A stretch of DNA of 32,000 bases from Candidatus Saccharimonadota bacterium (GTDB taxonomy: Bacteria; Patescibacteriota; Microgenomatia; UBA1406; GWC2-37-13): positions 1,110,001 through 1,142,000 of the forward strand of contig CP065004.1 of assembly GCA_016700135.1 (NCBI GenBank). Direction: 5' to 3'. The position numbers were made by a program, and so were the translations under genes. Positions 5,188-32,000 of the stretch are shown piece after piece (position 1 is the stretch's first letter; the number at the start of each line of letters is the position of its first letter). The notes under the pieces were generated by a model. It did not search any database and had not been told where the DNA came from. It saw nothing but the letters and a program-made list of their open reading frames with translations.

Positions 5188-5242
5188 ACAACACAGATCT
5201 ATCATGATTGTTCCATAACTGTATCGCATGTACAATAACATA

Positions 5243-5957: not shown

Positions 5958-5983
5958 TAACATATACCAGTTAACTCACCAAT

Positions 5984-9713: not shown

Positions 9714-10985
9714 TTATAGCATCTTTTTACTTCGAAGATGAACGTGATACTTTTTGGCAAAGCGGTGAGACTCGTCTCTCATTGACTGTACTAGTCTGAA
9801 ACCGGGATGATGACGAGGTGGCTTGATAGTGAGAAGGGTGTCATCTCCGATCACAATCCTGTCCGGCCGTTTTGCGATTCCGATAAGAGGAATTGTCACC
9901 TGCATCGCATCCAGAACTTCTTTCGCTGCACGGATCTGAGGCTTTCCTCCGTCTAAAATCACCAACTCAGGCTCAGGCCATTTATTTCTGAATCTCCTTG
10001 TCATAATCTCCTTAAACATGTCAAAATCGGACTGGACGTTCTCTCCTTTAATTTTGAATCGTTTGTATTCTTTTTTGTCACTCAATCCTTCAGTAAAAAC
10101 CACCATTGATGCGGTGCTGTTTTCAAACGACATAGTACTCATGTCGTAGCATTCGATCCTTTCAAGTTTCGGCAGATCATAATATGGTCGCAGAAGCTGC
10201 TGCAGAGACTTTACCCGTTTTTCTGATTTGTTGTACTCTTCAAGATTATTCGTATCAAACTTTCGTCGAAGAAGTACTCCTTCCAATCTGAACAATCGGT
10301 TACGATACGGTATTGCGTCTTCATACTTATCCTCTTTCGTCAGTACACTGATTTTTTTATACAGCTTCTCAATGACTATCTCCGTTTTCCCGTCTAGAAC
10401 CCGTACGGCATTGCGGATATTGTCTTTATATTGCTTTTGCAATTCTTTCTTCAATTCGGGAGAATCCGTTTTTTCTATTTCATTCGGACAGGGGTCACAG
10501 AGTTTTATCTTTGCATAAAAACACCTTCTGTTAGTAATACTTTTTTGTGTACAAAACGGAAAAACCTTTCTTATTTCTCGGAGAATATCGGCAGCAACAC
10601 GGACAGAAGAAAACGGTCCGAAATAGATTGCTCCCTTTTCGTCTTCTTTTCTCGTGATAAAAAATTTCGGATATTGGTCCTGTTTTGTGACTTTGATATA
10701 CAGATAGCTTTTGTCATCTCTCCATCTGACGTTGTATCTCGGTTTATGCTTTTGGATCAGTTTTGACTCAAGAAGAAGCGCTTTAAATTCCGAATCCGTG
10801 ACGATGTGCTCTATACTGTCGGCGCCTTCCACTATTGCCCGTTCTTTTGCATCATTTTTGGCATTTTCAATATGAGACTTAACTCGGGCTCTGATATTGA
10901 CTGACTTGCCGATATAGATCGGTTTGCCTTTAAGTTTGAAGATATAGATACCATTAGTAGTGGGGAGATCCTTGGTTTCGAACAT
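9714..10985 (-). CDS. uvrC: Excinuclease ABC subunit C, short form (423 aa) lacking the C-terminal (HhH)2 domain
   Basis: GIY-YIG motif (GIYIFK...PIYIGKS...R...H), a four-Cys cluster (FCTQ...RCFYAKIKLCDPCP), a UVR-like helix (KEDKYEDAIPYRNRLFRLE) and RNase-H-like endonuclease motifs (RIECYDMS, YKRFKIK, LVILDGGKPQ, IGIAKR, DESHRFA). The ORF ends right after HRFAKKYHVHLRSKK. Confidence 0.9.
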   Translation of the reverse strand: MFETKDLPTTNGIYIFKLKGKPIYIGKSVNIRARVKSHIENAKNDAKERAIVEGADSIEHIVTDSEFKALLLESKLIQKHKPRYNVRWRDDKSYLYIKVTKQDQYPKFFITRKEDEKGAIYFGPFSSVRVAADILREIRKVFPFCTQKSITNRRCFYAKIKLCDPCPNEIEKTDSPELKKELQKQYKDNIRNAVRVLDGKTEIVIEKLYKKISVLTKEDKYEDAIPYRNRLFRLEGVLLRRKFDTNNLEEYNKSEKRVKSLQQLLRPYYDLPKLERIECYDMSTMSFENSTASMVVFTEGLSDKKEYKRFKIKGENVQSDFDMFKEIMTRRFRNKWPEPELVILDGGKPQIRAAKEVLDAMQVTIPLIGIAKRPDRIVIGDDTLLTIKPPRHHPGFRLVQSMRDESHRFAKKYHVHLRSKKML

Positions 10986-10993
10986 ACCGTATA

Positions 10994-13867
10994 TTATAAA
11001 TACTTTTTCAAATACCGACCGGTATGGGAATTGTTGATGTCTAGAATCCCGCGAAGAGCACCTTGGTACACTATTTCACCGCCTTTGTCACCGCCTTCAG
11101 GGCCCAAATCAATGATCCACTGAGCGTTCTTTACTACATCAAGATTGTGTTCAATTACAACTACGGTATTTCCCTGTTCAACCAGTTCCTGAAGTGCTGC
11201 TAACAGTTTTTCCACATCAGCAAAGTGCAGACCTGTAGTCGGTTCATCGAGAATGTATAGAGTGTGACCGCGGCTCGCACGTGAAAGTTCATCAGCTAGT
11301 TTAATTCTCTGTGCTTCACCTCCTGAAAAGGTCGGTGCCGGCTGTCCGAGTGATATATATCCAAGTCCGACTTTCTGTAAAAACTGAAGTTTATTGAAGA
11401 TCTTTATGTGATTTCTGAAAAAATCAGCCGCTTCATCGACGGTCATATTCAAAACGTCGAAAATCGTTTTGTCTTTATATTTCACTTCAAGTGTTTCTCT
11501 GTTGTAACGCTGTCCTTCGCATACATCGCATTTGACATATACATCAGATAAAAACTGCATTTCTATTTTAATAACTCCGGCTCCCTGGCATTTTTCACAT
11601 CGTCCGCCTTTGACATTGAAAGAAAATCTCCCCCTTTTGTATCCTCGTGCTCTGGCCTCTACCGTTTCGGCAAAAATGTCACGGACTTCGTCAAACATGC
11701 CGACATATGTCGCGGGATTGGATCTCGGTGTCCGTCCGATAGGAGATTGATCGACAAGGTATACCCGTGTCAGATCCTGAAATCCCTCGAGCCGGCTGTA
11801 ATCACCGACAGACTCATTCCACTGATTGTTAATTTGCAGTTTGAGTGCGGGATACAGTGTTTCTGTTATTAGAGTGGACTTCCCTGATCCTGAGACGCCG
11901 GTGATGGCGATAAGATTCTGCAGCGGAAAACGGACCGTGACATCTTTCAGGTTGTATTGTGATGCGTTGTGAAGAATAATTTTTCCTTTCTTTTCCTCAA
12001 GTTCACGTTCTGAGATAGCGATTTGCTTACGTCCTGAAAGATATTTTCCCGTTACTGTCTGCTCGTCTTTTTTGATCTCATCAATTGTTCCCGTGAATGT
12101 GATTTTTCCGCCGTTTTTTCCGGCTTTGGGGCCGAGTTCGACCAGATAATCAGCCGATTCCATTGTTTCCTGGTCGTGCTCCACGACAACAAGCGTGTTG
12201 CCGAGATCTTTCAGGTTGTGCAGCGTTTGAATCAATGCTGAGACATCACGGGGATGGAGTCCTATAGACGGTTCATCAAGGACATATAAAACACCGGTTA
12301 ATCCTGTTCCGATTTGAGATGCCAGTCTGATTCTTTGCAATTCCCCTCCCGAAAGGGTTTTTGCTGCGCGTGAAATCGTCAGATAAGACAGTCCGACATT
12401 GTCCAAAAAAGTCAGTCTGGTAATTATTTCCCGTAAAATCGGAGTAGCTATCTGTATCTCGTACTCATTTAATATTTCTTTAATTCTGACATTGCTGAAT
12501 TCGATCATTTTCTTGATAGCCCAGTCCGTGACATCAGAGATATTGTGACCGTCGATTGTGATCGACAGGACTTCCTTTTTCAATCGTGCACCTTCACAGA
12601 CGGGACAGGTTTCTTCACGCATATATTTTTCAACTTCTCCGTTTCCGCCTTCGCTGTCAAAGTATCGTCGTTCCATGTCTTTGACCAGTCCGTGCCATGT
12701 CTCATGAATTGTTGTCGGTCTGCCGAATCGGTTCGTTCCTTCGACGAGGTATGTCGTGCCGGTACCTTTCAAAAGTATGTCCTTGGACTCCTGTGACAAT
12801 TTCTTTATCGGTATATTTAAATCAACTCCTTCATGTTCTGCTACCGTTTTTATAAGTCTCAGGTACCAGGTGCCCTGATAAAAGAATTTCGGATACGGCT
12901 GGATACCGCCTTCATTAATGCTTAAGTTCGGGTTGAGTAACAAGTCAGGATCGATGCGGTATACCGTGCCGATTCCCTTACATTCAGGACAGGCACCAAG
13001 CGGTGAGTTGAATGAAAACATGCGCGGTTCGATTTCGGGAAGCGACAAATTACAATTCGGACAGGAAAATTTTTCGGAAAAAAGATGTTCTTCGCTTCCC
13101 AATGCCAAGACGGCCAGACCGTCCGAGAGATTGGTGCTTTGCTCGACTGCCGTTGTCAGCCGTGAGCGCAGATTTGACATAAAAACATCATTACTCAAAT
13201 CTTTATACTGCAGTGATAAGGTATCAATATATGCTTCGATAGTGTGTTTGTTTGCTTTGATCAGATCAATATCACTGTCAAACGTAAAATCTTTTCCGTC
13301 AACTCTTGCCTGTCGGAATCCTTTACTCTGCAGATTTTCAAAAAGATCTTTGAATTCCCCTTTTCTGTTCCTGACAACCGGTGAAAGAATATGAATTATG
13401 TGCGGTTTTATTTTATCGGTTGAGAGCTCTTTTTTAATCATCTCAATCATCCGTGTCACAATCTCATCAACGGACAGTTTACGGATCTCGATATTACAAT
13501 TCGGACAGTGGGGATGTCCTACCCGTGCAAAAAGGACACGAAGATAATCATAAATTTCGGTAATTGTTCCGACCGTCGATCGCGGATTGTGTGATGCTGT
13601 TTTCTGATCAATAGAGATTGACGGTGAAAGGCCTTCGATCATATCAACATCAGGCTTATTCATGATGCCAAGAAACTGCCTGGCATATGCGGAAAGTGAT
13701 TCGACATATCGTCGCTGGCCTTCAGCATAAATGGTGTCAAAAGCCAAAGAAGATTTACCGGAACCTGATACTCCGGTAAAAACGACAAACTTATTTTTCG
13801 GAATTTCGACATCGACGTTCTTGAGATTGTGCTCACGAGCGCCTTTGACGACAATGGAATTTAGCAT
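10994..13867 (-). CDS. uvrA: Excinuclease ABC subunit A
   Basis: The canonical N-terminus MLNSIVVKGAREHNLKN is at the 25th codon of the ORF-track call. Two ABC ATPase modules (GVSGSGKSS twice, LSGGE.QRI twice, LDEP twice) and zinc-finger Cys pairs are present. Confidence 0.95.
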   Translation of the reverse strand: MLNSIVVKGAREHNLKNVDVEIPKNKFVVFTGVSGSGKSSLAFDTIYAEGQRRYVESLSAYARQFLGIMNKPDVDMIEGLSPSISIDQKTASHNPRSTVGTITEIYDYLRVLFARVGHPHCPNCNIEIRKLSVDEIVTRMIEMIKKELSTDKIKPHIIHILSPVVRNRKGEFKDLFENLQSKGFRQARVDGKDFTFDSDIDLIKANKHTIEAYIDTLSLQYKDLSNDVFMSNLRSRLTTAVEQSTNLSDGLAVLALGSEEHLFSEKFSCPNCNLSLPEIEPRMFSFNSPLGACPECKGIGTVYRIDPDLLLNPNLSINEGGIQPYPKFFYQGTWYLRLIKTVAEHEGVDLNIPIKKLSQESKDILLKGTGTTYLVEGTNRFGRPTTIHETWHGLVKDMERRYFDSEGGNGEVEKYMREETCPVCEGARLKKEVLSITIDGHNISDVTDWAIKKMIEFSNVRIKEILNEYEIQIATPILREIITRLTFLDNVGLSYLTISRAAKTLSGGELQRIRLASQIGTGLTGVLYVLDEPSIGLHPRDVSALIQTLHNLKDLGNTLVVVEHDQETMESADYLVELGPKAGKNGGKITFTGTIDEIKKDEQTVTGKYLSGRKQIAISERELEEKKGKIILHNASQYNLKDVTVRFPLQNLIAITGVSGSGKSTLITETLYPALKLQINNQWNESVGDYSRLEGFQDLTRVYLVDQSPIGRTPRSNPATYVGMFDEVRDIFAETVEARARGYKRGRFSFNVKGGRCEKCQGAGVIKIEMQFLSDVYVKCDVCEGQRYNRETLEVKYKDKTIFDVLNMTVDEAADFFRNHIKIFNKLQFLQKVGLGYISLGQPAPTFSGGEAQRIKLADELSRASRGHTLYILDEPTTGLHFADVEKLLAALQELVEQGNTVVVIEHNLDVVKNAQWIIDLGPEGGDKGGEIVYQGALRGILDINNSHTGRYLKKYL

Positions 13868-13905
13868 AGAAGAACCTATTAGTTTACACGGTTTTAGCAG
13901 AAAGA

Positions 13906-14988
13906 TCAAGTAAGTGTATGAGTTCCATACATATGGCACTCTTTAGGTAAAATAGATAATAGGTAATCCATAGGTGAAATATTGTTCAGGCTTTTGTGAA
14001 CTCGCTTTGTATTGTACCAGACGAGGTATTCAATAAGGTGACGATTGAATGATCCGATACCGGTCCACTTGGTATAGATGTAGGGGTTCATAAATTCTTC
14101 CTGGAGTGTTCTGTTTGCTCGCTCAATAAAGGCATTGATCTTGGGACATCTGGGGTAGATAAAGAGGTGTGGGATATTGTTTTCTTCCAGATAGTCATGG
14201 AAGTTTCCCAGATACTCGAGGCCGTTATCTGTTTGTATGGTTTTTATACCATCTTGTATTGGGTATACTAGTTCCAGTCTTCTCATAAAATCAGCACCGT
14301 TTCGGCTGTTGAGTTTTGAGTATCCGTAGGAGAACTGGAATTTGAGTTTGATGTCCACTGCATTGAAGACATACAGCTTGATTCCGTGTACAAACTTCGT
14401 GATGGTATCAATCTCAATGTATCCGGTATCTTCCACCTTGGGAGACCGCTTGACCTTCTGTCGGTACTTTACTTTCCGTTTTGCAAAGCCACTTGCTGGA
14501 TTGTGATAGATCCGGTAGGTCTTGCGCTGCAGGTTGTGTCTTTTGATCACTTTTCCAATGGTTGACTCAGATATAGTTGAAATTCCTTCCTGTAGGCAAT
14601 ACTCATCAAGTAAGGGCTTGATCTTCTCCTTTCCCAAACAAAAGTATTGTTCTCGAATCTCTTTGATAAAGGATATGACCTTCGGGTGAGTCTCCATACG
14701 TCGGGGTGTCTTTGGCTTGGTTGTCTCTGGTATCAGGCTATCCAACTGCCCTTCTGAATCTCGCCGTCTCTTCCTCCATCGAAACAATGTCCTTCGTGAT
14801 ATCCCATATGCATCAACTGCAGCTTGTATCCCGTACTTCTCTGCAAATGTCAGAACATCGTTTCTGATTTGTGCTACATCTGACTGATTGTAGTCTGATA
14901 GAGATCGTATCTTTTTCATAAGATCTCTATTGTACTGCCAGTCATAACTCCTAATTACTCGAAGCTGATCTCCTCCCCATTTACTCAT
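13906..14988 (-). CDS. Integrase-core (rve) DDE transposase, IS481-like, 360 aa
   Basis: N-terminal HTH (GISRRTLFRWRKRR), DDE core (YIEIDTI, IQTDNGLEY, RCPKINAFIERANRTLQEEF) and the C-terminal YNTKRVHKSLNNISPMDYL typical of IS3/IS481-type integrase cores. It is a single ORF with no frameshift. Confidence 0.8.
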   Translation of the reverse strand: MSKWGGDQLRVIRSYDWQYNRDLMKKIRSLSDYNQSDVAQIRNDVLTFAEKYGIQAAVDAYGISRRTLFRWRKRRRDSEGQLDSLIPETTKPKTPRRMETHPKVISFIKEIREQYFCLGKEKIKPLLDEYCLQEGISTISESTIGKVIKRHNLQRKTYRIYHNPASGFAKRKVKYRQKVKRSPKVEDTGYIEIDTITKFVHGIKLYVFNAVDIKLKFQFSYGYSKLNSRNGADFMRRLELVYPIQDGIKTIQTDNGLEYLGNFHDYLEENNIPHLFIYPRCPKINAFIERANRTLQEEFMNPYIYTKWTGIGSFNRHLIEYLVWYNTKRVHKSLNNISPMDYLLSILPKECHMYGTHTLT

Positions 14989-15032
14989 AGATGTTAGTTC
15001 CCTATGAGTGCCATATCTTTCGTAACTTATTC
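13917..15032 (-). mobile_element. IS481-like insertion sequence (rve-type DDE transposase); boundaries approximate
   Basis: An 11-bp perfect inverted-repeat core ATATGGCACTC (13931-13941) pairs with GAGTGCCATAT (15006-15016), with weaker similarity extending outward. The candidate 8-bp target duplication AGTAAGTG is at 13909-13916 and 15033-15040. Confidence 0.6.
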
Positions 15033-15069
15033 AGTAAGTGATTGTATAGTATACTATTACCCCGATACT

Positions 15070-15512
15070 ATGGAAAAATTACAACAAAGCCTACGATTTG
15101 AGCCGACTTTTTCTGATAGAATGACCTTCGAAAAGATATTACATCCCGATCACTGGCATATCTTGCACGCGGGGAGCAATATGCTGTGTGTCTTAATCAA
15201 GTAATTACGTTTGGAGGGGATATCGAACGGTTCAGACAATACCTTGCATACGGAAAAGAGTTCGGGATTTCACAAATATCAAATGAAGGTATTGCCAGCA
15301 TCGTGATCTACTGGACTGATTTTCCGCAATACGAAAAGGTTGAGAGGGATGACATCTGTATTGTCAAACCGTTCATTTTGCGTCCTGAGCTTGATGATTC
15401 ACAACTTATTTTGTATGAACAGGCGTTCAGATCAACTTCACCAAATAGATATCTTCGTTTTCGAAATAATCCCAGCGAATTAGCTCTTGAACTGTATTCT
15501 GAAATACAATAA
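15070..15512 (+). pseudogene. Possible frameshifted remnant of a hypothetical gene trapped between two IS elements
   Basis: Two overlapping ORFs in different frames (15070-15204, MEKLQQSLRFEP...HAGSNMLCVLIK, and 15186-15512, ...VITFGGDIERFRQYLAYGKEF...). The second frame is open from 15120. No family recognised. Confidence 0.3.
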
Positions 15513-15547
15513 TCATCTCCTTTGACTTCATTCACAGTAATTTGCAA

Positions 15548-16262
15548 GGCTCTAGACTAGCACATTAACAATTTGTAATAGTTCATTGTAAAGGATCGAT
15601 GGGGATTTGCTCCATCTCCATTCACACTCTTTCAAGTGTAATGGAAAGTTTTTCTTTACACCATTGAACTTAACGAGACGTCTTTTACAAAAGGACCAGA
15701 ATGACTCTATGCCATTGATATGGACCCCTTTTGTATTTGAGAACTCATTTTTCTTGTGATTGATTCTCAAATGTTTGTCATACCCGACATCAACAAGTCC
15801 GTTGTATCCGCTCCACGAATCTGAATATACAGTACTGTTCAAGTCAATCTTTCCCTTCATAACAGCATGTAGCGTTCTTCTTTTACAGTTTGGAATGATA
15901 CGAGTAAATACACGTCCTTGACGCTCATATATCCCAAATACTACCTGCTTAAATGACGTCCCACGACCTCTTTTACTTGACTTGCCTCTCATCCTTCGAG
16001 GTCCAAAGTATGATTCATCAATTTCTATCTCACCACCAACATATCGTTGCATCTGGTGCACTTGGTGATGATATATGAGTTGACGAATATTATTGTAATA
16101 TTTGTTGACTGTATTGCGGTTGAGACCCAAAATACCAGAGGTCTGTGTAGCACTCAGATCGTGTGCAAAACACCATAGTATCTTTTTTCTCTTGTATTTT
16201 GATATCGGCCTATTGTTACAAACCATACCTCTAGTTTAGCACTACTCTGCTAGTCTAGAGCC
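15548..16262 (-). mobile_element. IS1595-family insertion sequence, copy B (715 bp)
   Basis: Same 15-bp terminal inverted repeats as copy A, offset by exactly +10305. It is flanked by the direct repeat TTTGCAA (15541-15547 and 16263-16269). The right-hand duplication abuts the uvrB stop codon (16270-16272). Confidence 0.85.
15552..16226 (-). CDS. IS1595-family transposase, identical to 5247-5921
   Basis: The ORF-track translation is identical over all 224 aa. Confidence 0.8.
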   Translation of the reverse strand: MVCNNRPISKYKRKKILWCFAHDLSATQTSGILGLNRNTVNKYYNNIRQLIYHHQVHQMQRYVGGEIEIDESYFGPRRMRGKSSKRGRGTSFKQVVFGIYERQGRVFTRIIPNCKRRTLHAVMKGKIDLNSTVYSDSWSGYNGLVDVGYDKHLRINHKKNEFSNTKGVHINGIESFWSFCKRRLVKFNGVKKNFPLHLKECEWRWSKSPSILYNELLQIVNVLV

Positions 16263-16269
16263 TTTGCAA

Positions 16270-18327
16270 TTACTCCTTCAGTTCTCGGATCTTATCACGG
16301 AGCATTATAGCAGCTTCAAAATTCATCTCTTCCGCATATTTTTTCATTTCTCTTTCAAACTTCTTTATTGTCTTCTTCTTGTCCAGCGGAGTCATCGAAT
16401 CAATATCCAGTTCCTCGACTGCTTTCATTGTAAAGTCTTTCTGGAGTTTGTCGAATGACATATAATCTTCTTCAAGGTGTTCGACAATCTTCTCACGAAG
16501 CGGTTTATAAATAGTTTTCGGATTAATATTATGCTTTTTATTGTACGCAAGCTGCTGCTCACGGCGTCGTTTAATCTCTTCCGTCGATTTCTTGATAGAG
16601 TCAGTCATTTTATCTGCATACAATATGACTTTGCCTTGAACATTTCGGGCAGCGCGTCCCATTGTTTGAATCAGAGATGTTCTGGATCTTAAGAATCCTT
16701 CCTTATCGGCATCAAGTATCGCCACAAGTGTGACTTCGGGCAGATCGAGACCCTCTCTCAGTAAGTTCACTCCGATCAATACGTCAAACTCATTTTTGCG
16801 GAGATTGTCAAGCACGTCAGACCGTTCAAGAGTGTGAATGTCTGAGTGAAGATATGCAGCTCTGATTTTCTTCTCAGTCAAAAACTCGGTCAAATCTTCT
16901 GCTGTTTTCTTTGTGAGTGTTGTAACCAGCACTTTTTCGCCTTTTTTTGCCCGATCCTCTACTTCTTTGATAAGGTCAGGTATCTCCGTTGTTGCAGGAC
17001 GGATTTCAATCTCTGGATCCACAATACCGGTCGGTCTGATAAGCTGCTCGACAACTCCGTTGTGGGGTACTTCATTTTTCTCTCTTTCGAGAGCCTTTGT
17101 TTCTCCGTGAGCCTGATCCACTTCCCATTCGTCGGGAGTTGCGGAGACATATACGATTTTTGAGGGTATACGATAGAACTCTTCAAATTTCAGTGGCCTA
17201 TTGTCGTAGGCAGAGTTTAAACGGAAACCGAAATCTATCAGCGTTCTTTTTCTGGCATGATCGCCGTTGTACATCCCTCTGATTTGTGGCACGGTCATGT
17301 GAGACTCATCAATAAAAACGAGAAAGTCATTGCCGTAAGCCACTTTAAAATAATCAAGAAGACTGTAAGGAGCGTCACCCGGTTTTCTGCCGTCAAAATA
17401 CCGTGAATAATTTTCAATACCGTTCACATATCCGACTTCTTTGATCATCTCCAGATCGTAATTTACTTTCCTGAGCAGCCGCTCTGCTTCCAGGTTTTTC
17501 CCCTGCTTTTTCAGCATTTGATGTTCTTTTGCAAGATCCGCTCTGATTTGCGATTCCGCTTTTTCAAAAACAACGGGATCTGTGAGATACAATTTTGCAG
17601 GATAAATAGTTACACCGGTACTTTCCGATCTGATTTTCTGTCCTGATAGCGGTTCGATAAACTCAATTTCCTTCACTCTTCCGTATTCTTCGATAATTCT
17701 GATAGCATAGTCCTGATAAGGCAGATAAATATCCATATGGCTGCCGCGTACTCTAAACGTGCCGCGATTAAAATCAAATTCAGACCGTTCATACAAAAGT
17801 TCAGTCAGGCGTACCGAAAGCTGTTTCCAGTCGACAAAATCACCAATCTTAATATCGACCATATATTTCCCGTACTCAGTAGGAGAACCGATATTGTAAA
17901 TACACGATACAGAGGCGACGACAATGACATCTTTTCGGGTTAGGATGTTTGTCGTTGATTGGAGGCGGAGCTTGTCAATAAGTTCATTGATATCCGCTTC
18001 TTTCTCAATGTAAGTGTCAGTTGTCGGGATGTAAGCCTCAGGCTGATAGTAGTCGTAGTATGACACAAAGTAAGACACGGCATTTGTCGGAAAAAAATCC
18101 CTGAATTCCTGATATAGCTGTCCTGCCAAAGTTTTGTTGTGAGATATGATCAATGCAGGCATGTTCAGATCGCGGATCATATTGGCCATAGTAAAGGTTT
18201 TGCCGGACCCGGTCACGCCGAGAAGCACTTGATTTTTTATGCCGGATTTCACACCAGCTGTCAGTTTTGCGATTGCCTGAGGTTGATCGCCTGTCGGATT
18301 GTATTCAGAGGATAAATCAAAAGCCAT
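16270..18327 (-). CDS. uvrB: Excinuclease ABC subunit B
   Basis: N-terminus FDLSSEYNPTGDQPQAI, Walker A GVTGSGKT, the DESH box (FIDESHMT), helicase motifs VSATP and QTMGRAARN, and the C-terminal UVR domain (FEAAIMLRDKIRELK). Confidence 0.95.
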   Translation of the reverse strand: MAFDLSSEYNPTGDQPQAIAKLTAGVKSGIKNQVLLGVTGSGKTFTMANMIRDLNMPALIISHNKTLAGQLYQEFRDFFPTNAVSYFVSYYDYYQPEAYIPTTDTYIEKEADINELIDKLRLQSTTNILTRKDVIVVASVSCIYNIGSPTEYGKYMVDIKIGDFVDWKQLSVRLTELLYERSEFDFNRGTFRVRGSHMDIYLPYQDYAIRIIEEYGRVKEIEFIEPLSGQKIRSESTGVTIYPAKLYLTDPVVFEKAESQIRADLAKEHQMLKKQGKNLEAERLLRKVNYDLEMIKEVGYVNGIENYSRYFDGRKPGDAPYSLLDYFKVAYGNDFLVFIDESHMTVPQIRGMYNGDHARKRTLIDFGFRLNSAYDNRPLKFEEFYRIPSKIVYVSATPDEWEVDQAHGETKALEREKNEVPHNGVVEQLIRPTGIVDPEIEIRPATTEIPDLIKEVEDRAKKGEKVLVTTLTKKTAEDLTEFLTEKKIRAAYLHSDIHTLERSDVLDNLRKNEFDVLIGVNLLREGLDLPEVTLVAILDADKEGFLRSRTSLIQTMGRAARNVQGKVILYADKMTDSIKKSTEEIKRRREQQLAYNKKHNINPKTIYKPLREKIVEHLEEDYMSFDKLQKDFTMKAVEELDIDSMTPLDKKKTIKKFEREMKKYAEEMNFEAAIMLRDKIRELKE

Positions 18328-20356: not shown

Positions 20357-20911
20357 TTACTGTTCGTATTCAGGAAAGTTTTCGTCTCCGTTAAATTTAG
20401 CTTCGGTATCTGCAGGTCTCGAATTATTGTTAAGCCATTCAATGTATGTACAACCTGTTGCTTTTCTTGTTTCACGATCCCAACCTGAAGTACTGCATTT
20501 CTTCATTCTTTTCCCGTTTGCTGTAGTCACAAGGACGAGATTCTCTCCGCATGTCGGACATTTTTCATCCAATTCTTCTTTTGTACCGTTGAACCATTCG
20601 ACGAAATCACAACCTGTCGCTTTCCTGGCTTCACGGTCCCATCCTCCTTTGCTGCATTTCTTCATTTTTTTGCCTGTTCTTGTGGTTGCCATGACAAGAG
20701 GTGCGCCGCATTTGGGACATTTTTCATCTAGTTCTTCAGGTTCAGGAGTAAACCACTTGACATAATCACAGCCTTCCACCTGTCTGGTTTCGGGATTCCA
20801 TGATCCGGTAGAACATCGTTGAAGTTTTTTACCGGTCGGTGTTTCTTCTACTGGAGACAAAGGTGATCCGCATTTCGGACAGTTGGTTAGTTTTGAATCT
20901 TTAGTTGCCAT
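20357..20911 (-). CDS. Stand-alone protein with three topoisomerase-IA-type C4 zinc-ribbon repeats (YrdD-like)
   Basis: Three ~53-aa repeats of CP.CG.(P)L....T..GK...CS..GW......TGC....W (for example ELDEKCPKCGAPLVMATTRTGKKMKKCSKGGWDREARKATGCDFVEWF). TACAAT at 20923-20918 lies 6 nt before the ATG. Confidence 0.7.
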   Translation of the reverse strand: MATKDSKLTNCPKCGSPLSPVEETPTGKKLQRCSTGSWNPETRQVEGCDYVKWFTPEPEELDEKCPKCGAPLVMATTRTGKKMKKCSKGGWDREARKATGCDFVEWFNGTKEELDEKCPTCGENLVLVTTANGKRMKKCSTSGWDRETRKATGCTYIEWLNNNSRPADTEAKFNGDENFPEYEQ

Positions 20912-24568: not shown

Positions 24569-25030
24569 ATGCCGAAACCGACGCCGATTCTTTTCACAAA
24601 GGAAGGATACGAAACACTGCAAAAGGAACTTACTACTCTCAAATCAAAGAGACCTGAATATGTGCAGGAACTTACAAAAGCTGCAGAGCTCGGAGACCGC
24701 AGCGAAAACGCAGCCTATAAATATGCCAAACAGAAACTAAGACAAACAGACAGCAGACTTCGTTATCTGGAAAAAACACTGGACCGGGCAAAAGTCGTCG
24801 AAGCGACTCAGCATGAATATATTGAAATCGGTTCATCAGTTATTATGCATAACGGTACAAAAGAGTGCGCATACCGTATTGTCGGAGGTAATGAATCGGA
24901 TCCCTCAAAAGGGCTTCTTTCCTATCAGTCCCCTCTTGGACAAGCATTGCTGAGGAAAAAGACAGGGGATAAGGTTTCGATAACAACACCTGTGGGTACG
25001 GTGATCTATACAATCCTCAAAATCAGTTAG
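24569..25030 (+). CDS. greA: Transcription elongation factor GreA
   Basis: Coiled-coil N-domain with GDRSENAAYKYAKQ and a C-terminal globular domain (SYQSPLGQALLRKKTGDKV). The length is 153 aa. TATAAT at 24557-24562 lies 6 nt before the ATG. Confidence 0.9.
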   Translation: MPKPTPILFTKEGYETLQKELTTLKSKRPEYVQELTKAAELGDRSENAAYKYAKQKLRQTDSRLRYLEKTLDRAKVVEATQHEYIEIGSSVIMHNGTKECAYRIVGGNESDPSKGLLSYQSPLGQALLRKKTGDKVSITTPVGTVIYTILKIS

Positions 25031-25262
25031 CTTCAGGGAACTCTACATCACAAGCCATTGCCGTACACATGACTTCTCCGTTCTGACACGAACAGGAATT
25101 ACACTCATCCTGAAAGCCTTCTCCGTCTTTGTAAGTAATGCCTTTGTAGGTACATGACAAAGGAATGATATTTTTTACCGGATTTGTATCCAGTTTTGCA
25201 ATCATCAGACCGAGCACTACCCCGATACCGATTAGCAGGATATACAGTAAATATTGTTTCAT
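25023..25262 (-). CDS. Small membrane-anchored or exported cysteine-rich protein (79 aa), VWC-like Cys pattern
   Basis: N-terminal hydrophobic segment (LLYILLIGIGVVLGLMIA), then CTYKGITYKDGEGFQDECNSCSCQNGEVMCTAMAC. TATAAT at 25276-25271 lies 8 nt before the ATG. The 3' end overlaps the greA 3' end by 8 nt. Confidence 0.6.
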   Translation of the reverse strand: MKQYLLYILLIGIGVVLGLMIAKLDTNPVKNIIPLSCTYKGITYKDGEGFQDECNSCSCQNGEVMCTAMACDVEFPEAN

Positions 25263-27284: not shown

Positions 27285-28307
27285 TTAGTGTAATCCGGCA
27301 ATGTCTAATAACTCATCAGTCGTAAGCGACTCAATCGGGGATGTAAGGTACGGATTTATGTGTTCTATAAGGTAATTTGCAAATAAACCGTTGAGAACGG
27401 TACCTGAGTGGATTCCGTCCGATAGAAACAAATTTTGAGGATTATTCTGCCCGATATACTGGTCAAGAATGATATCTCCGACTTTTACCTGATAATCAGT
27501 CTCACTTCCCCGCAAGCCCTGGAAAAAGTCATTTGTCTCAATAATATGTGCCCCATATTTTTCAGCTACATCTGCAATTTTAGCGTTAGTTTCATTGATG
27601 ACTTGCGTGACGAGATACCGTTTATAAGGAAGCGGGAAACCGATTTTAACCGCTGTGTGATTTCCCCAATCAGGGATTGTTACGATAAAAATTTCGGGGT
27701 CGCCTGCAGCCTGAAGCGTTTCAACTGCTGTTTGAATATCCGCGACTATGAGATTCTCCTTTTGAATAATGTCTTCCCGACTCATTTCTTCGTTATAAAT
27801 TGCACTATATGCATTGTCATACAGATACGGGGCAAAATCATTCGCTCCGATATAGATTACTACTACGTTTACTTCTCCGCTTTTAACATACTGGGCCAGT
27901 CCGGCATGCTGGTCAGATGAAATCATGGACGCAGCAGTGGCACCTGACCGGGCAAAATTGTATTCATACCCCTGTCTTCTGGGTTCTTCATAATAATTCC
28001 ATGTTCCGAAGTTGACATTTCTTTTATTTGCCAAAATCTCAACCCAATTATACGTAGAGGTCGGATAATTCGTCCCGCGTTTGTCATCAGCACGGTATTC
28101 GTCTGACTGGCTGTCTCCCAGTATACCGATCCCTTTCAAAGGAACTTGCTCGATGGGTGTAGGTTTGACCAAGTACTTCTGAATTTGATCGATGACAAAT
28201 TGAGGTTTCCATGTGAGCATCACAACACCCGAAATGAATGCCATAACGGCAATAAAAAGCATAAAATAAAATGCTGCTTTCAGAATATTGATGAGGGTGT
28301 TTTGCAT
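27285..28307 (-). CDS. SGNH/GDSL-family hydrolase (esterase/lipase-like), N-terminally membrane-anchored
   Basis: All four SGNH blocks are present: GILGDSQSDEY (I), FARSGATAA (II), IYIGANDF (III) and LSDGIHSG (V). The N-terminal TM segment is AAFYFMLFIAVMAFISGVVML. ATG 28307 is preceded by TGaTACAAT (28321-28313). Confidence 0.75.
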   Translation of the reverse strand: MQNTLINILKAAFYFMLFIAVMAFISGVVMLTWKPQFVIDQIQKYLVKPTPIEQVPLKGIGILGDSQSDEYRADDKRGTNYPTSTYNWVEILANKRNVNFGTWNYYEEPRRQGYEYNFARSGATAASMISSDQHAGLAQYVKSGEVNVVVIYIGANDFAPYLYDNAYSAIYNEEMSREDIIQKENLIVADIQTAVETLQAAGDPEIFIVTIPDWGNHTAVKIGFPLPYKRYLVTQVINETNAKIADVAEKYGAHIIETNDFFQGLRGSETDYQVKVGDIILDQYIGQNNPQNLFLSDGIHSGTVLNGLFANYLIEHINPYLTSPIESLTTDELLDIAGLH

Positions 28308-28333
28308 GTCGTATTGTATCAAATATGAGATTT

Positions 28334-28361
28334 GGCTCCCGGTGCATGCGCACCGGGAGCC
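28334..28361. terminator. Perfect 12-bp stem / 4-nt loop GC-rich hairpin downstream of the lipoprotein gene
   Basis: GGCTCCCGGTGC-atgc-GCACCGGGAGCC lies 20 nt after the stop of the minus-strand ORF 28381-28908. There is no clear U-tract on either strand. Confidence 0.5.
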
Positions 28362-28380
28362 TTGAACAAAGATGACCGGG

Positions 28381-28908
28381 CTATTGGCCGATAACGGGAG
28401 TGGTCAACCGACAGTAGTCGATTTCCCACGTTTCCAGTTTGTCGGCATTGAAGGTCTCGCTGTCACGCACGGCGGCGACAGCCTCAAACTGGTGACGGCA
28501 TTTGAACTCCACAGAGTCACCAGGGAGCAACACAGATGCCTTCGAATCCGTGACCTTGAGAATGACAATGCTGCCAACGGGAGCAAGTTCGGAATCCGAT
28601 GACTGGACATGCAAGCGGACGAATCCCTTGCCGCCGAATTCCGGTCCGAAATAGCTGCCGTATGCGCCGTAGGCACTCCCTGCCATTGACCCCCGTGCGG
28701 GTGCGGTTTGGCGAACAAGACTCTCGACATCTCCGATCACGACACCCGCGATGAGGTATACACCATCATCGACGGGCATGCCATCAGGATTCGCGAGGAA
28801 AGCTTGCGGGCTGTCACTGCTCGGCTGTGGCGCGCGGTCTGCCATACAGCCTGCAAGCAATGCTGCAAGCAGAACCAATACTACCAAACCACTGAAACGC
28901 GTTTTCAT
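28381..28908 (-). CDS. Putative lipoprotein (175 aa), high-GC gene
   Basis: Signal peptide with lipobox MKTRFSGLVVLVLLAALLAGC. Shine-Dalgarno AGAGGA lies 7 nt upstream of the ATG. GC-rich codon usage differs from neighbouring genes. Confidence 0.65.
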   Translation of the reverse strand: MKTRFSGLVVLVLLAALLAGCMADRAPQPSSDSPQAFLANPDGMPVDDGVYLIAGVVIGDVESLVRQTAPARGSMAGSAYGAYGSYFGPEFGGKGFVRLHVQSSDSELAPVGSIVILKVTDSKASVLLPGDSVEFKCRHQFEAVAAVRDSETFNADKLETWEIDYCRLTTPVIGQ

Positions 28909-29122
28909 TGTAAAATCCTCTCTTAAGTTATAGGTTGAACTGACCGTATTGACGAGAATTGCTTCTCACCAATAGTAGTCAGTTCAAATTAGCCCGATCT
29001 GTCAATGTGCATATCATTTATCCGCACCCTTTGTATGTTAGCTTTTATACATACTCAAAAGCAGATAATGATATATGTATATTATGCTATAGGTTATCAG
29101 AAGATTAAAGAGAAGTATTTTT

Positions 29123-29542
29123 TTACACTCCGTTTACTAAAGCAAAAAGACTGCGAATTGCCGATTCGGAAGAACCGTACCGGAACGCCCGCAACTGATT
29201 GATTTGAGAAAGATAATACAACTGCTCCTCTCTCGTGAGTATAATTCCCACATTCGGTACCTGGTTCAGTTCATAATAAATCGGTGAAAGTAATAATGGA
29301 TCAGTGCGCTCGTTGAGACCGTCAAATCCTCCCTGAAGACATACCGCTCCGATTCCCTGAAGGGTTAATTCCTTTGCAACATTGTAGCTTCTGCCGCTTC
29401 CGTGATTGCAGATGGTCACAACCTGCAGGCCGTTTGATACCATTCTGGCAAGTCTTCCGTTTAATATTTCTTCCGTGTTTATCCCGTAATCTTTTCTTGC
29501 GAGAGTTTCGGTGATTGGTGAAGGTTGAGGAAGCTCAGTCAT
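29123..29542 (-). CDS. Rhodanese-fold protein with a Cdc25/Acr2-type CX5R active-site loop
   Basis: VVTICNHGSGRSYNVAKELTLQGIGAVCLQGGFDGL fits the rhodanese pattern (hydrophobic strand, Cys loop, ...GG...), but the loop is C-NHGSG-R, one residue longer than in sulfurtransferases. The gene is low-GC. Confidence 0.5.
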   Translation of the reverse strand: MTELPQPSPITETLARKDYGINTEEILNGRLARMVSNGLQVVTICNHGSGRSYNVAKELTLQGIGAVCLQGGFDGLNERTDPLLLSPIYYELNQVPNVGIILTREEQLYYLSQINQLRAFRYGSSESAIRSLFALVNGV

Positions 29543-29921
29543 AGATGGTGTCAGTATTTCAAATCTGAATGAAATAATGAACTATTGTATCACAGGAACG
29601 GACATAATTCGGAGATATCATGTTTCCGGGACTCAGAATCGAAATCAGACACGCGGTTGACCGATAATAAGATTCTATAAATACCATAATGAATGATATA
29701 ATATTTCTTCTCTGTAAATACAAAAGCTGTATTCTACCGGGACTGTTCTTTAACAATACGATTTGTACTTACTTTATTAACTTTGGTATAGAGAGGTTTT
29801 ATTGACCTTTGTATGCCAAAATTAATCTGGTCACCTGAAGAAAGGAGAATGGGGCCTGAGGTGTAAAACCTTACTTTGGTAGATTGTATCGGACCGTTTA
29901 GTCTATAAAGGAGAAACACAC

Positions 29922-30593
29922 ATGTTCGGTAAGCTCGGAGTTGTGGTACTTGCAGCTTTGTTCGGATGGATGCTCATGGGAATGCGCGGGCTGCTGATCG
30001 GAGGAGCCGCTGCAGCAGTCGGTGTCTTTTTCTTTGCGCGGGCTGCCACGCCCGTGGTCGTTGAGGAACCTCCCCTTTCACGCTTTCTCTTTGAAAGTAC
30101 CGGTTCCGCCCCTCTTTGGCTCGCACTCCCCATTCTGGTGGGCTACGAATGGCTTGAAGCCGGTTTTCACAAGTTGGAAGACCCCGCCTGGCACAACGGT
30201 GAGGCGATCCTCGGTTTTTGGACACGTGCCGCGTCTATTCCGGCAGAAGGCCGTCCGCTCGTCTCGTTTGACTGGTGGCGGTCGTTCCTGCAGTTCATGA
30301 TCGATGCTGAATGGCACAGGTGGTTCGGGCCGTTGATCATGTACTCGGAAGTATTGGTCGGCATTGCGTTGATCATCGGCCTTTTCACGGGCATTGCCGC
30401 TTTCGGCGGTGGGTTCATGAACTGGTCGTTCATGATGTCTGGAAGTGCCAGCTCAAATCCGATGCTCTTTGCGTTCTCGGTGCTGCTGGTGCTTGCGTGG
30501 CGTGTGGCAGGGTGGTACGGCATTGACCGTTTCCTTCTCCCGATTCTCGGGACACCATGGCGGCCGGGCCGTGTGTTCCACGCGGAGACATAG
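29922..30593 (+). CDS. DoxX/DoxD-like integral membrane protein (223 aa), high-GC gene
   Basis: Multi-pass membrane protein with DoxX-like features (LVGYEWLEAGFHKL, EVLVGIALIIGLFTGIAAF, GWYGIDRFLLP). Shine-Dalgarno AAGGAG (29908-29913) lies 8 nt before the ATG. Confidence 0.5.
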   Translation: MFGKLGVVVLAALFGWMLMGMRGLLIGGAAAAVGVFFFARAATPVVVEEPPLSRFLFESTGSAPLWLALPILVGYEWLEAGFHKLEDPAWHNGEAILGFWTRAASIPAEGRPLVSFDWWRSFLQFMIDAEWHRWFGPLIMYSEVLVGIALIIGLFTGIAAFGGGFMNWSFMMSGSASSNPMLFAFSVLLVLAWRVAGWYGIDRFLLPILGTPWRPGRVFHAET

Positions 30594-30606
30594 TACAAGT
30601 CGTATA

Positions 30607-30634
30607 CTGCATCCTGCCTTCGGGCAGGGTGCAG
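30607..30634 (+). terminator. Intrinsic-terminator-like hairpin after the DoxX-like gene
   Basis: CTGCATCCTGCC-ttcg-GGCAGGGTGCAG forms a 12-bp stem with one G-U pair. It starts 14 nt after the stop and is followed by a T-rich tract (accttttaactgttttattt). Confidence 0.6.
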
Positions 30635-30670
30635 ATATACACCTTTTAACTGTTTTATTTATTCCAAAGA

Positions 30671-30716
30671 AAAACCGCCTGATGATCTGATGAAACTTCA
30701 TCATGCCATGAGGCGG
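30671..30716 (-). terminator. Candidate intrinsic terminator for minus-strand transcription
   Basis: The minus strand reads CCGCCT...(inner hairpin TGATGAA/TTCATCA)...AGGCGG followed by TTTTTCTTT. Confidence 0.4.
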
Positions 30717-30934
30717 CGTTTCTCTTGTACGTAAGCTTGTAGCTTACTCGTGCGGATTGTCCGCAGATGTCAGTGCAGATGGTTATCTGCATTGTGATAT
30801 TGCCCAACGATTTTATTCGTTAAGCAGGTGTATTCTGTTGTAACTTCTGCACAAGCAGGTATGCTTATTTGTGATCACGCTCGTCGATGAACGGATCGCG
30901 CTGGTACTGCTTCCAGTGAGCCGTTAGTTCTTCG

Positions 30935-31234
30935 TTAGCAAGAAGCTTCTGCAGCTTGTTCTCCGAAAAGTTGTCCCTGGATCTCGTGTCCCTTGACGCC
31001 GGCCCATTCCTGGGAGTCCCGGATCCGGGAGTAGACATCGCTCGCGACGCCGCCGATATACGGCTCGCCGCACGAGATGGAAGTCACATTCCCGTTTTGG
31101 TCGTAATAGGTCACACAGCCCTGCTGAGAAATTTCATCAGAATCCGCGGCATGCGCCTCAGCTGGCGCACTGACAAAACTGACCATCGTCATCATAATTG
31201 CTGCGATGACCAAGGTCATAAAGCGCTGAAGCAT
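30935..31234 (-). CDS. Small secreted protein (99 aa as called), high-GC gene; the 3' end may be frameshifted
   Basis: Signal peptide MLQRFMTLVIAAIMMTMVSFVSAPAEAHA. Shine-Dalgarno AGGAG lies 6 nt before the ATG. A coding-like reading frame continues to 30865 in another frame (see findings). Confidence 0.6.
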   Translation of the reverse strand: MLQRFMTLVIAAIMMTMVSFVSAPAEAHAADSDEISQQGCVTYYDQNGNVTSISCGEPYIGGVASDVYSRIRDSQEWAGVKGHEIQGQLFGEQAAEASC

Positions 31235-31464
31235 GATACTCTCCTCTTAGGGTACTTCTGAAATAAAAGGTGCGTGTAGAGCAAACCGCCTTCCACGTTT
31301 TGCTCTCCGTGTCAACTCGGATGACTGGACATCGGGAGCTGTTCCCTCTGCACGTTACACGCCAAGTTTTTGACGTTCAAATTATATCATAGTAGATCAT
31401 TAAAATCAAACTATAGGTCATATAGAGAAGATGTAAACTTTGGAATTCAGTCCATTGTATATTG

Positions 31465-32000
31465 TTATATCTGATTCAGAAGTTTATAGAGTATCAAGGC
31501 GAAAGCTTCCCGACGCGAATCGCGATTAGTGAAGGGTTTATTTTTGTCCTGGTCCCAGCAGACGCTTTCAACAGCAGGTGACAAAGAGTAGTCGTAATGC
31601 AGTTTTGAAGCAACCAGTTTTGCTCGGGCAATATGATACGGATCAGTCACTATAATGACTGAATCTAATTTTGCATCTGTAAGTATTTCCTTTGAGAATG
31701 CAAAATTTTCATAGGTCGATGTTGATTTGTTCTCAATAAGAATATCCTCAGTAGGTACGCCAGCTGCAATGGCAAATTTTTTCATATTCTCAGCTTCGTT
31801 TATGTTTGTACCTTCATCATTCCCTCCCGACATGAGAATTTTTGGTGCAAAACCTTCTTTATAAAGTTCAACTGCATGATCTACACGGGCAATAACACAC
31901 GGATTATAACGGGGCTTCTTTACAAATCCTTTTTGATTACAGATAGGTCCGTAGCATGAATTATCAGATTTGATAGTTCCGCCCAACACTATAATTACAT
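31465..32000 (-). CDS. DUF218 (YdcF/SanA-like) domain protein; the 5' end probably lies beyond the window
   Basis: RVDHAVELYKEGFAPKILMSGG...NEAENMKKFAIAAGVP.EDILIENKSTSTYENF...VIIVTDPYHIARA is the DUF218 signature. The frame stays open to base 32000 and the track start is a GTG. Confidence 0.7.
   Translation of the reverse strand, partial: VIIVLGGTIKSDNSCYGPICNQKGFVKKPRYNPCVIARVDHAVELYKEGFAPKILMSGGNDEGTNINEAENMKKFAIAAGVPTEDILIENKSTSTYENFAFSKEILTDAKLDSVIIVTDPYHIARAKLVASKLHYDYSLSPAVESVCWDQDKNKPFTNRDSRREAFALILYKLLNQI

Follow-up and report, generated by a model that had tools for sequence, protein, structure and literature searches.

We analysed a window of 32,000 nucleotides (contig CP065004.1, positions 1,110,001 to 1,142,000), in which three short genes of high guanine-plus-cytosine (GC) content are set among low-GC genes. 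They encode a lipoprotein, a DoxX-like membrane protein, and a 99-residue protein with a signal peptide. It is highly probable that small envelope-protein genes from high-GC bacteria entered a variable locus of this genome in at least two separate events: the lipoprotein gene from a Caldilineae-like and the DoxX gene from an Anaerolineae-like member of the Chloroflexota, and the gene of the signal-peptide protein from another donor. By its sequence, the window can be assigned to Candidatus Roizmanbacteria, a lineage of the Microgenomates group in the Patescibacteria or Candidate Phyla Radiation (CPR). The 99-residue protein is 100% identical to IPM65_06030 of a Candidatus Roizmanbacteria bacterium, and the DoxX-like protein shares a 90% cluster with QQS44726.1, annotated as 'DoxX family membrane protein [Candidatus Roizmanbacteria bacterium]'. 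Elsewhere in the window we found housekeeping content, including a phosphoenolpyruvate-utilising enzyme, UvrA, UvrB, UvrC, GreA, a ZnuA-type ABC transporter, and tRNAs, together with some transposases.

Three gene-sized peaks of atypical composition

The GC content of the whole window is 42.9%, and background windows of 600 nt have a mean of 42.4% with a standard deviation of 2.2% and a maximum of 48.5%. At the locus, the GC fraction rises to 0.557 at 28330-28930, falls to 0.391 at 28931-29899, and rises again to 0.568 at 29900-30645; it then passes through 0.418 (30646-30815) and 0.521 (30816-31375) to 0.368 at 31376-32000. The elevated segments (0.52–0.57) thus lie more than 4 standard deviations above the background windows. 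A previous reading of this DNA, made without database searches (the sequence-only reading), had described two GC islands with abrupt edges. Its hand counts of G+C (38/60, 40/60, 21/60, and 23/60) were all exact on recount, and the abrupt change of composition is evident, but the number of islands has to be corrected: between DoxX and the 99-residue gene, at 30646-30815, the second 'island' drops to background level (41.8%), which makes three peaks instead of two islands. We use the term island for each of the three peaks.

Island 1 holds the lipoprotein gene (28381-28908, minus strand, 175 residues), island 2 the DoxX gene (29922-30593, plus strand, 223 residues), and island 3 the gene of the 99-residue protein (30935-31234, minus strand), with a GC fraction of 0.56, 0.58, and 0.55, respectively. 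The GC fraction at third codon positions (GC3) is 0.60, 0.66, and 0.62 in the same order, compared with 0.33–0.46 in 28 other open reading frames (ORFs). All three island genes therefore deviate from the host genome in both GC and GC3, as expected of transferred genes.

Conserved junctions and patchy gene content among relatives

Exact matches to the DoxX and 99-residue proteins of the window were sought among recorded contigs without a hit, and the locus was compared with related contigs: L001/L011, a metagenome-assembled genome (MAG) at NCBI (L001 is GCA_964504235.1) with 91% DNA identity to the window over 6.5 kb; L002, from a JGI metagenome; L003, L004, and L009, ENA assemblies; L010, a Logan assembly; and L012, a second NCBI MAG. 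L011 and L012 are syntenic with the Roizmanbacteria window, yet these third-party annotation assemblies are titled 'uncultured Gammaproteobacteria bacterium', and the record of a further contig, L022, is titled 'uncultured Pseudomonadales bacterium'. These titles look unreliable, and screens for horizontal gene transfer (HGT) that depend on taxonomy could be misled by them.

The sequence-only reading had named chimeric assembly as the trivial alternative, in which high-GC reads would have been misjoined into a low-GC CPR contig. MAGs are indeed prone to chimerism, and the composition switches abruptly at gene boundaries. However, seven further contigs (L001, L002, L003, L004, L009, L010, and L012), assembled independently in different projects and with different assemblers, carry these high-GC genes with the same low-GC genes on either side. 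In those relatives, the genes have a GC content of 52–59% within flanks of 40–44%, and their divergence tracks that of the flanking genes. The source contig of the window spans 1,448,136 bp. We consider the chance of a chimera negligible and exclude it.

The sequence-only reading had also proposed a check for presence or absence of the island genes in related genomes, and their distribution turned out to be patchy at a syntenic locus among close relatives, as expected after transfer. The DoxX gene is absent from L009 and L010, in which its slot (29542-30663) is filled by an unrelated gene for 76 residues that is also GC-rich and preceded by a Shine-Dalgarno (SD) site. L002 lacks the lipoprotein gene and a neighbouring gene for 139 residues, and the homologue of the 99-residue gene is missing from L001 and L002.

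Probable Chloroflexota origin of the lipoprotein and DoxX genes

The lipoprotein precursor has the N-terminal signal-peptide sequence MKTRFSGLVVLVLLAALLAGC with the lipobox LLAGC, which conforms to the pattern [LVI][ASTVI][GAS]C of a predicted lipoprotein; the lipobox Cys is nearly invariant in 23 aligned homologues, and the protein has two conserved Cys residues. Its family comprises 85 homologues without a Pfam family, and all named members belong to the Caldilineaceae. Among the GTDB representatives (one genome per species), the gene occurs in two CPR-like MAGs and in MAGs of Caldilineaceae, Caldilineales, and Chloroflexia. The Chloroflexota copies have a GC content of 56–66% in flanks of 51–62%, while the CPR copies reside in flanks of 40–44%. 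In a neighbour-joining (NJ) tree, every copy with low-GC flanks falls within one clade (bootstrap 97.5) nested among the high-GC Chloroflexota copies; this clade includes the copy of L005, which has a different CPR-type genomic context. These comparisons indicate that the lipoprotein gene was acquired from a Caldilineae-like Chloroflexota donor.

The DoxX-like protein is predicted to be an integral membrane protein of the DoxX/DoxD clan. It has 1768 homologues, among which six CPR-type sequences with 65–100% identity make up a tight clade that is monophyletic in the NJ tree. The best 120 of the 1768 homologues include ten named proteins, nine of them from Chloroflexota (Anaerolineae, Promineifilaceae, and others), with 55–62% identity. 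In 47 metagenome loci bearing the nearest non-CPR homologues, the flanks have a median GC content of 61% and the gene differs from its flanks by a median of only -0.006, compared with +0.15 in the window. The sequence data thus identify an Anaerolineae-like Chloroflexota lineage as the likely source of DoxX.

Both genes accordingly match their genomic context in the donor lineage, and the sequence evidence sets the direction of transfer as from high-GC Chloroflexota to CPR, because the gene GC matches the flanks in Chloroflexota-type loci, whereas the CPR copies are mismatched or nested. Among 95 loci, of donor type and others, none has the two genes together, and in the window they are parted by a gene of native type. 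Both findings argue for separate arrival. We therefore rejected the transfer of the lipoprotein and DoxX genes as a single block. The sequence-only reading had proposed horizontal acquisition, and for these two genes the atypical GC3, the high-GC Chloroflexota homologues without any mismatch to their surroundings, the nested CPR copies, and the patchy presence bear it out. Its analogy with Actinobacteria, the hosts of Saccharibacteria, is not borne out, the donor signal being that of Chloroflexota (Caldilineae and Anaerolineae). The taxonomic origin of the closest homologues, which it had wanted checked, is Chloroflexota for the lipoprotein and DoxX, and the 99-residue protein has only two homologues.

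An alternative explanation would be that the genes are native and vertically inherited, with a GC content that stems from their amino-acid composition (rich in Gly, Ala, Pro, Trp, and Arg) or from selection on the mRNA. In line with this, GC is also raised at first (0.58–0.63) and second (0.44–0.48) codon positions, and the genes are long resident and under purifying selection. The biggest shift, however, is found at third positions, the families otherwise belong to Chloroflexota with the CPR copies nested inside, and the genes are patchy among close relatives. Moreover, the native secreted and membrane proteins of the window (for example, a GDSL-family protein and a solute-binding protein) have ordinary GC3 and lack an SD site. 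We regard a native origin as very improbable.

Homologues of both families also occur in other low-GC sequences. The low-GC MAG L022 carries a lipoprotein homologue (6001-6567) that is 40% identical and has a GC content of 48% in flanks of 40%, and L060 (SWCD01011790.1), a contig of about 40–41% GC, has a DoxX homologue at 4968-5528 with 53% GC. These copies may represent further independent transfers of the two families into low-GC organisms.

Age of the proposed transfers

Against relatives whose flanking proteins are 75–85% identical to those of the window, the divergence at four-fold degenerate sites (window versus L002, L009, or L012) is 0.47–0.55 for the island genes and 0.53–0.69 for native genes. 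The ratio of nonsynonymous to synonymous substitution rates (dN/dS) of the island genes is 0.05–0.19 (lipoprotein, 0.05–0.10; DoxX, 0.05–0.06; 99-residue gene, 0.19), indicating purifying selection. Because the silent-site divergence is nearly that of native genes and the genes are shared by lineages with flanking proteins of no more than 75–80% identity, the transfers can be judged old, predating or close to the split of the sampled lineages. The genes would have been retained under purifying selection since before that split, while their GC3 drifts slowly towards that of the host, which would amount to partial amelioration.

In the framework of Lawrence and Ochman, acquired genes of atypical composition undergo amelioration. 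The genes of the window resemble such cases in the mismatch of GC and GC3, the nesting in a foreign clade, the patchiness, and an excess of GC-to-AT changes. The ratio of GC-to-AT to AT-to-GC changes is 29:17 for DoxX and 46:77 for native genes, although these counts are small and biased by a distant outgroup. From the four-fold divergence (0.5) and the host GC3 (about 0.38), we roughly estimate an ancestral GC3 of about 0.85 for the island genes, which fits a donor GC3 of about 0.8–0.9; the donor-type loci range from 0.54 to 0.99. We also considered 'arrested amelioration' as an anomaly and dropped it, since the estimated ancestral value falls within the donor range. Unlike the cases of Lawrence and Ochman, the genes of the window are old, with silent sites nearly saturated between carriers, and yet plainly atypical, and they retain a second donor trait, the SD-type start, among native genes without SD.

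Probable entry, deletion, and replacement at the locus

Compared with L002, the window has an additional segment at 28394-29656 with the lipoprotein and 139-residue genes, bounded by the two copies of an 11-bp direct repeat, TTGGCCGATAA at 28384-28394 and TTGACCGATAA at 29657-29667. L002 has a single copy of the repeat, and the final four codons of its lipoprotein gene are still there together with the stop codon, which indicates that L002 lost the segment and not that the window gained it. The arrangement is a mosaic, as the sequence-only reading had put it, and would have arisen as genes entered a variable locus in separate events and were later deleted or replaced in particular lineages. 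The later events would comprise the deletion between the 11-bp repeats in L002, the establishment of another SD-led gene in the DoxX slot of L009 and L010, and a deletion in the window that fused two truncated genes in island 3. The same variable zone of L009 holds, at 5558-6882, two very AT-rich genes for 307 residues (GC3 0.19) and 128 residues (GC3 0.26), an anomaly in the opposite direction.

The earlier statement that no integrase, tRNA attachment site, or flanking repeat is evident withstood scrutiny. There is no tRNA within 20 kb of the islands (the nearest tRNAs are at 4390-8035) and no integrase, recombinase, or insertion sequence (IS) within 12 kb, the nearest transposases being at 13906-16263. 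The 11-bp pair (28384, 29657), best explained as the substrate of the deletion, is the only significant repeat at the islands. Like a classical genomic island, the locus is a delimited stretch of foreign composition in a variable region, but it differs from such islands and from integrative elements in having no integrase, tRNA or tmRNA site, IS, or target-site duplication, and in consisting of single-gene insertions parted by a native gene. Since nothing of this kind marks the insertions, entry might have occurred by natural uptake of DNA and integration by illegitimate recombination.

The genes could also be the cargo of a phage, a plasmid, an integron-like array, or another mobile element shuttling between Chloroflexota and CPR, and the locus its attachment or cassette site. 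They are small, self-contained, SD-led units followed by hairpins, the occupants of the slots differ among relatives, lipoprotein homologues are found on two IMG/VR contigs, and active IS copies and an rve-type transposase occur elsewhere in the window. On the other hand, in addition to the lack of mobility genes near the islands, the lone flanking direct repeat is better explained by the L002 deletion, and the units have no repeats in common. The two IMG/VR contigs have a GC content of 62–65% and may be host regions. With integron gene cassettes and clusters of attC sites lacking integron-integrases (CALINs), the locus shares small, promoter-poor ORFs each with an imperfect palindrome downstream, and slot contents that vary by strain. 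It differs from them in that the hairpins are unrelated and without attC cores (RYYYAAC/GTTRRRY), the orientations are mixed, and no integrase (IntI) is present, for which reasons an integron or cassette array was discarded. A phage or plasmid vector was likewise discarded: no relative of DoxX was found in viral contigs, and the full-length relative of the 99-residue protein, a protein of 159 residues, had no phage or plasmid match. Mobile cargo of any sort is in our view improbable, and the separate acquisition of single genes from Chloroflexota and another donor accounts better for the locus.

Start signals of the island and native genes

All three island genes have the SD motifs and spacings described by the sequence-only reading: AGAGGA at 28916-28921 (minus strand) with a spacer of 7 nt to the ATG for the lipoprotein gene, AAGGAG at 29908-29913 (plus strand) with 8 nt for DoxX, and AGGAG at 31241-31245 (minus strand) with 6 nt for the 99-residue gene. 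The duplex energies of -8.3, -8.7, and -9.5 kcal/mol, respectively, are the three strongest anti-SD pairings among the 30 genes of the window, the rest having a mean of -1.7 and a best value of -7.3 kcal/mol (Mann-Whitney p = 0.003).

The surrounding genes had been described as having a -10 hexamer directly before the start codon and no SD. Such a layout, with a TAYAMT box ending 6–7 nt ahead of the start codon, is found in eight of the 27 native genes (chance expectation 0.1), so that the description applies to a part of them, together with the weaker SD energies of the others. The same layout recurs in L001, L002, and L009, the gene rplS included. Judged by sequence layout, with a -10 box placed at the start and no SD, the native genes would be transcribed into leaderless mRNAs.

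The association of foreign composition and SD extends to the relatives. Among the 56 called genes of L001, L002, and L009, all those with GC3 of 0.52 or above (the genes for the lipoprotein, DoxX, and the 159-residue protein, a gene for 97 residues, and the 76-residue gene) have anti-SD energies of -7.6 kcal/mol or stronger. The remaining genes, including the one for ribosomal protein L19 (rplS), have -5.9 kcal/mol or weaker, mostly above -3. Foreign composition and an SD-led start thus coincide in 12 of 12 gene instances in four genomes, compared with none of about 70 native genes.

The SD sites are also conserved. The SD motif and spacer of the lipoprotein gene are the same in the window, L001, L009, and L012 (AAGGAGG in L005); the 17 nt preceding the ATG of DoxX are identical in the window, L001, L002, and L003, with divergence farther upstream; and 31 of 32 nt upstream of the 99-residue gene are kept in L009. 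Since both the motif and its spacer have persisted in diverged relatives, in contrast to the adjoining non-coding DNA, which has drifted, we infer that SD pairing still guides the host ribosome to the island genes. Each foreign gene would be a self-contained monocistronic unit with a donor-type SD, present on arrival or gained later.

The sequence-only reading had placed a GC-rich stem-loop downstream of each island gene, which applies to two of the three. Between the lipoprotein stop codon and the start of the adjacent GDSL gene, a hairpin at 28334-28361 has a perfect 12-bp GC-rich stem (-28.6 kcal/mol, z = -5.2), kept with compensatory changes in L001, L002, L009, and L012, of which L002 lacks the lipoprotein gene. 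This hairpin resembles a terminator and is predicted to act as an insulator. The palindrome stands directly upstream of the -10 box of the GDSL gene, and it may serve that gene (insulation or regulation) besides ending the lipoprotein transcript. Downstream of DoxX, a GC-rich hairpin with a UUCG loop (30607-30634, plus strand; -30.3 kcal/mol, z = -6.6) is probably its terminator, and the lipoprotein and DoxX units would thus each bring a GC-rich terminator hairpin of their own. There is no stem-loop directly after the 99-residue gene (z = -1.4), the next strong hairpins on the minus strand being at 30664-30765.

Implications for Roizmanbacteria and points to be weighed

HGT into CPR bacteria is already documented and compositional islands are textbook knowledge; the locus is a well-resolved further example rather than a new mechanism. 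Lateral transfer shapes CPR metabolism (PMC7304191), genes have been reported to pass between CPR and other bacteria of activated sludge (PMC10031880), and HGT has also been described for Saccharibacteria (PMC7427843). As in these reports, the recipient is a CPR bacterium, and accessory genes come from non-CPR bacteria of the same habitat. Those surveys dealt with recent transfers (>99% identity) or metabolic genes, whereas the transfers in the window are ancient, concern envelope proteins, point to Chloroflexota donors, and are marked by translation-initiation signals. Current concepts remain unchanged by this instructive case, in which the direction, donor phylum, and relative age of inter-phylum gene flow into a CPR bacterium could be resolved.

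Several points weigh against the acquisition of these genes from Chloroflexota and another donor as set out here. The best non-CPR identities are about 60%, and the donor is assigned to phylum or class only. This assignment depends on the names given to MAGs, and some of these names are plainly unreliable, as with two CPR-like contigs called 'uncultured Gammaproteobacteria'. The trees were built from short proteins by simple NJ. The 99- and 159-residue proteins and the 97- and 76-residue genes have no homologues outside the CPR clade, and GC3 and the SD site are the whole basis for supposing a foreign origin. At silent sites, the divergence of the island genes is a little below that of their flanks, which may reflect subsequent exchange between related lineages of CPR, or a constraint acting on those sites, instead of a single ancestral acquisition. 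Both SD use and leaderless initiation are known here from sequence motifs alone. Finally, the evidence covers 32 kb of the genome, a scope outside which the genome-wide frequency of such islands lies.

CPR genomes are small and their hosts mostly unknown, and envelope proteins are the likely interface with hosts. As a special case of acquisition from Chloroflexota, the donor might have been the physical host, with a Roizmanbacteria lineage that lives as an episymbiont on filamentous Chloroflexota and took up surface proteins for attachment or mimicry. Two independent acquisitions lead to the same phylum, all the products are envelope proteins, and the source names of the homologues include Promineifilaceae. 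Patescibacteria and filamentous Chloroflexota share the activated-sludge habitat (PMC8012365), where, as noted, genes pass between CPR and other bacteria. However, old transfers and identities of about 60% at best reveal little about the partners of today, Chloroflexota abound in these habitats anyway, and one gene leads to the Caldilineae but the other to the Anaerolineae, a different class. We therefore consider that the donor was the host possible but doubtful. Because two acquisitions point to Chloroflexota and the habitat is shared, this phylum is nevertheless a testable host candidate, and the two independently derived envelope genes are a concrete lead for the ecology of Roizmanbacteria. 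The products might supplement the envelope of a monoderm, host-dependent cell.

A bolder proposal can be formulated from the start signals. The lineage would have largely given up SD-led initiation for its own genes while its ribosome has retained the ability to read SD sites; foreign genes would persist only where each forms a single-gene unit with an SD and a terminator of its own, gathered in one permissive locus; the SD would be a near-perfect, lasting tag of the acquired envelope repertoire; and the capture of Chloroflexota surface proteins would mark filamentous Chloroflexota as hosts of Microgenomates in activated sludge. Taken as a whole, this proposal is unlikely. In the literature searched, we came across no earlier account of how CPR bacteria use SD or leaderless starts. 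An SD-led start in mostly leaderless genomes could be a cheap marker of ancient HGT, and the locus raises the question of how a translation system adapted to leaderless mRNAs handles SD-led ones.

Structure and possible function of the lipoprotein and DoxX

The structure model of the lipoprotein (predicted local distance difference test score, pLDDT, of 67) had its best matches in the Protein Data Bank (PDB) to barrels of the oligonucleotide/oligosaccharide-binding (OB) type, namely CusF, SSB, and the ComEC OB domain, all non-significant. The model suggests an OB-like β-barrel with a probable disulfide. With this moderate model confidence and non-significant matches, we dropped the assignment of a function from the fold.

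The DoxX-like protein of the window scores below the gathering thresholds of both reference families, with 17.9 bits for PF07681 (cut-off 23.6) and 19.0 bits for DoxD, PF04173 (cut-off 22.7). All 12 DoxX clade members match PF07681 (best E = 4.8e-7), and many of the 1768 homologues carry this domain. The protein also differs from the reference in an extra N-terminal segment of about 45 residues with two hydrophobic helices, common to its nearest relatives. The NCBI annotation has a 179-residue protein that starts 44 codons downstream, leaving out the region 29922-30056. The 223-residue form with the two additional predicted helices is supported by the SD site, by six relatives in which the N-terminal 45 residues are conserved, and by two sister proteins that have these residues as well.

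The DoxX proteins of mycobacteria have been connected with thiol and oxidative-stress defence, and the protein of Mycobacterium tuberculosis acts with SseA and SodA in a membrane oxidoreductase complex (PMC6930017). The window protein resembles mycobacterial DoxX as a multi-pass membrane protein of the same clan, and a Cys-loop protein of 139 residues encoded beside it loosely recalls the DoxX-SseA pairing. Unlike in that system, however, the Cys-loop protein (loop CX5R) co-occurs with the lipoprotein and not with DoxX, and its status as a rhodanese is doubtful; neither SodA nor a quinone-related partner was seen. As a matter of speculation, DoxX may contribute to the handling of thiols or oxidative stress.

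The gene between islands 1 and 2

The 139-residue gene (29123-29542, minus strand) is low in GC, with GC3 of 0.44 and an SD energy of +0.4. Its family has 45 cluster representatives, in which C45, R51, G72, and E106 are invariant and the Cys loop has the form CX5R. A homologue in another contig of 43% GC has a GC content of 36% and a -10 box placed for a leaderless start. By these features, the gene appears to be a native-type CPR gene of a small uncharacterised family.

It had been called rhodanese-like, for which one would expect a match to the hidden Markov model of PF00581, an α/β fold, and a catalytic Cys in a six-residue CX4R/T loop. A weak local likeness is found at the Cys loop: the family profile matches PDB entries 3foj (E = 1.8e-4), 3iwh, and 6mxv, but only across this loop and the following helix, and the loop sits after the first strand of a modelled α/β fold. 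Other comparisons leave the designation doubtful. The loop is one residue longer than CX4R/T, the score against the Pfam rhodanese family is 15.3 bits (cut-off 22.2) with weak matches in five of 34 family members, and when the AlphaFold 2 model (pLDDT 95) was compared with the PDB by Foldseek, the first 50 matches were all non-significant and included no rhodanese.

Island 3 and the flanks

For the 99-residue protein, only two homologues were found in 5.8 billion proteins, the identical IPM65_06030 and the 159-residue P0212 (68% identity). Homology of the gene to L009 stops at 30948. The protein consists of the first 96 codons of the 159-residue protein, intact in L009 and L010, fused to a remnant of the 97-residue gene. 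The gene and SD described before are present, but the secreted protein is a 3'-truncated version joined to a pseudogene remnant. This remnant (30820-30963, minus strand), the 3' part of the 97-residue gene, is 5'-truncated, bears a Tyr-to-stop change, and aligns at the DNA level with L001 10899-11042 and L002 3577-3702. The 97-residue gene itself is SD-led, of intermediate GC, and intact in L001, L002, and L009.

Between islands 2 and 3, a 102-bp element at 30664-30765 forms three hairpins, with z = -5.5 on the plus strand and, on the minus strand, where a U-tract is present, z = -7.1. It is 93% identical in L009 and L010 (L009 9196-9297), compared with 70–78% in its flanks, and looks like a bidirectional terminator belonging to the 97-residue gene of the relatives. 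Such conservation exceeds what terminators usually need. Rfam gave no known family in the islands or, at gathering score, in the element.

On the left, the locus is anchored by a native, conserved GDSL-family esterase/lipase gene (27285-28322, minus strand; Pfam Lipase_GDSL_2, 8.9e-12; GC3 0.41; without SD), which is syntenic in L001, L002, L009, L010, and L012. Its start is likely the ATG at 28307, with TGATACAAT 5 nt upstream. The low-GC right flank holds a native DUF218 gene (31465-31989, minus strand; Pfam DUF218, 5.8e-29; GC3 0.33).

Other observations in the window

Two IS copies at 5242-5958 and 15547-16263, each of 717 bp and 100% identical, encode a 224-residue IS1595-family (ISXO2-like DDE) transposase. 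Both have perfect 16-bp terminal inverted repeats (AGGCTCTAGACTAGCA) and are seemingly bordered by 5-bp duplications, AACAT and TTGCA, respectively. Their complete identity suggests recent transposition. The cluster of uvrC, uvrA, and uvrB (9714-18327) is broken by one of these copies and by an rve-type integrase/transposase gene (13906-14988), which overlaps the start region of uvrA.

Adjoining greA, the ORF 25023-25262 (minus strand) codes for a conserved membrane-anchored protein of 79–81 residues with a Cys-rich domain, with counterparts at L001 5102-5341 and L009 13889-14134. Precomputed annotation assigns it Pfam matches of the Pacifastin_I and VWC type, domains that are usually those of animals. 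The ORF 20357-20911 (minus strand) contains a tandem duplication of about 150 nt at 20429-20737, with 73% identity between the two copies.

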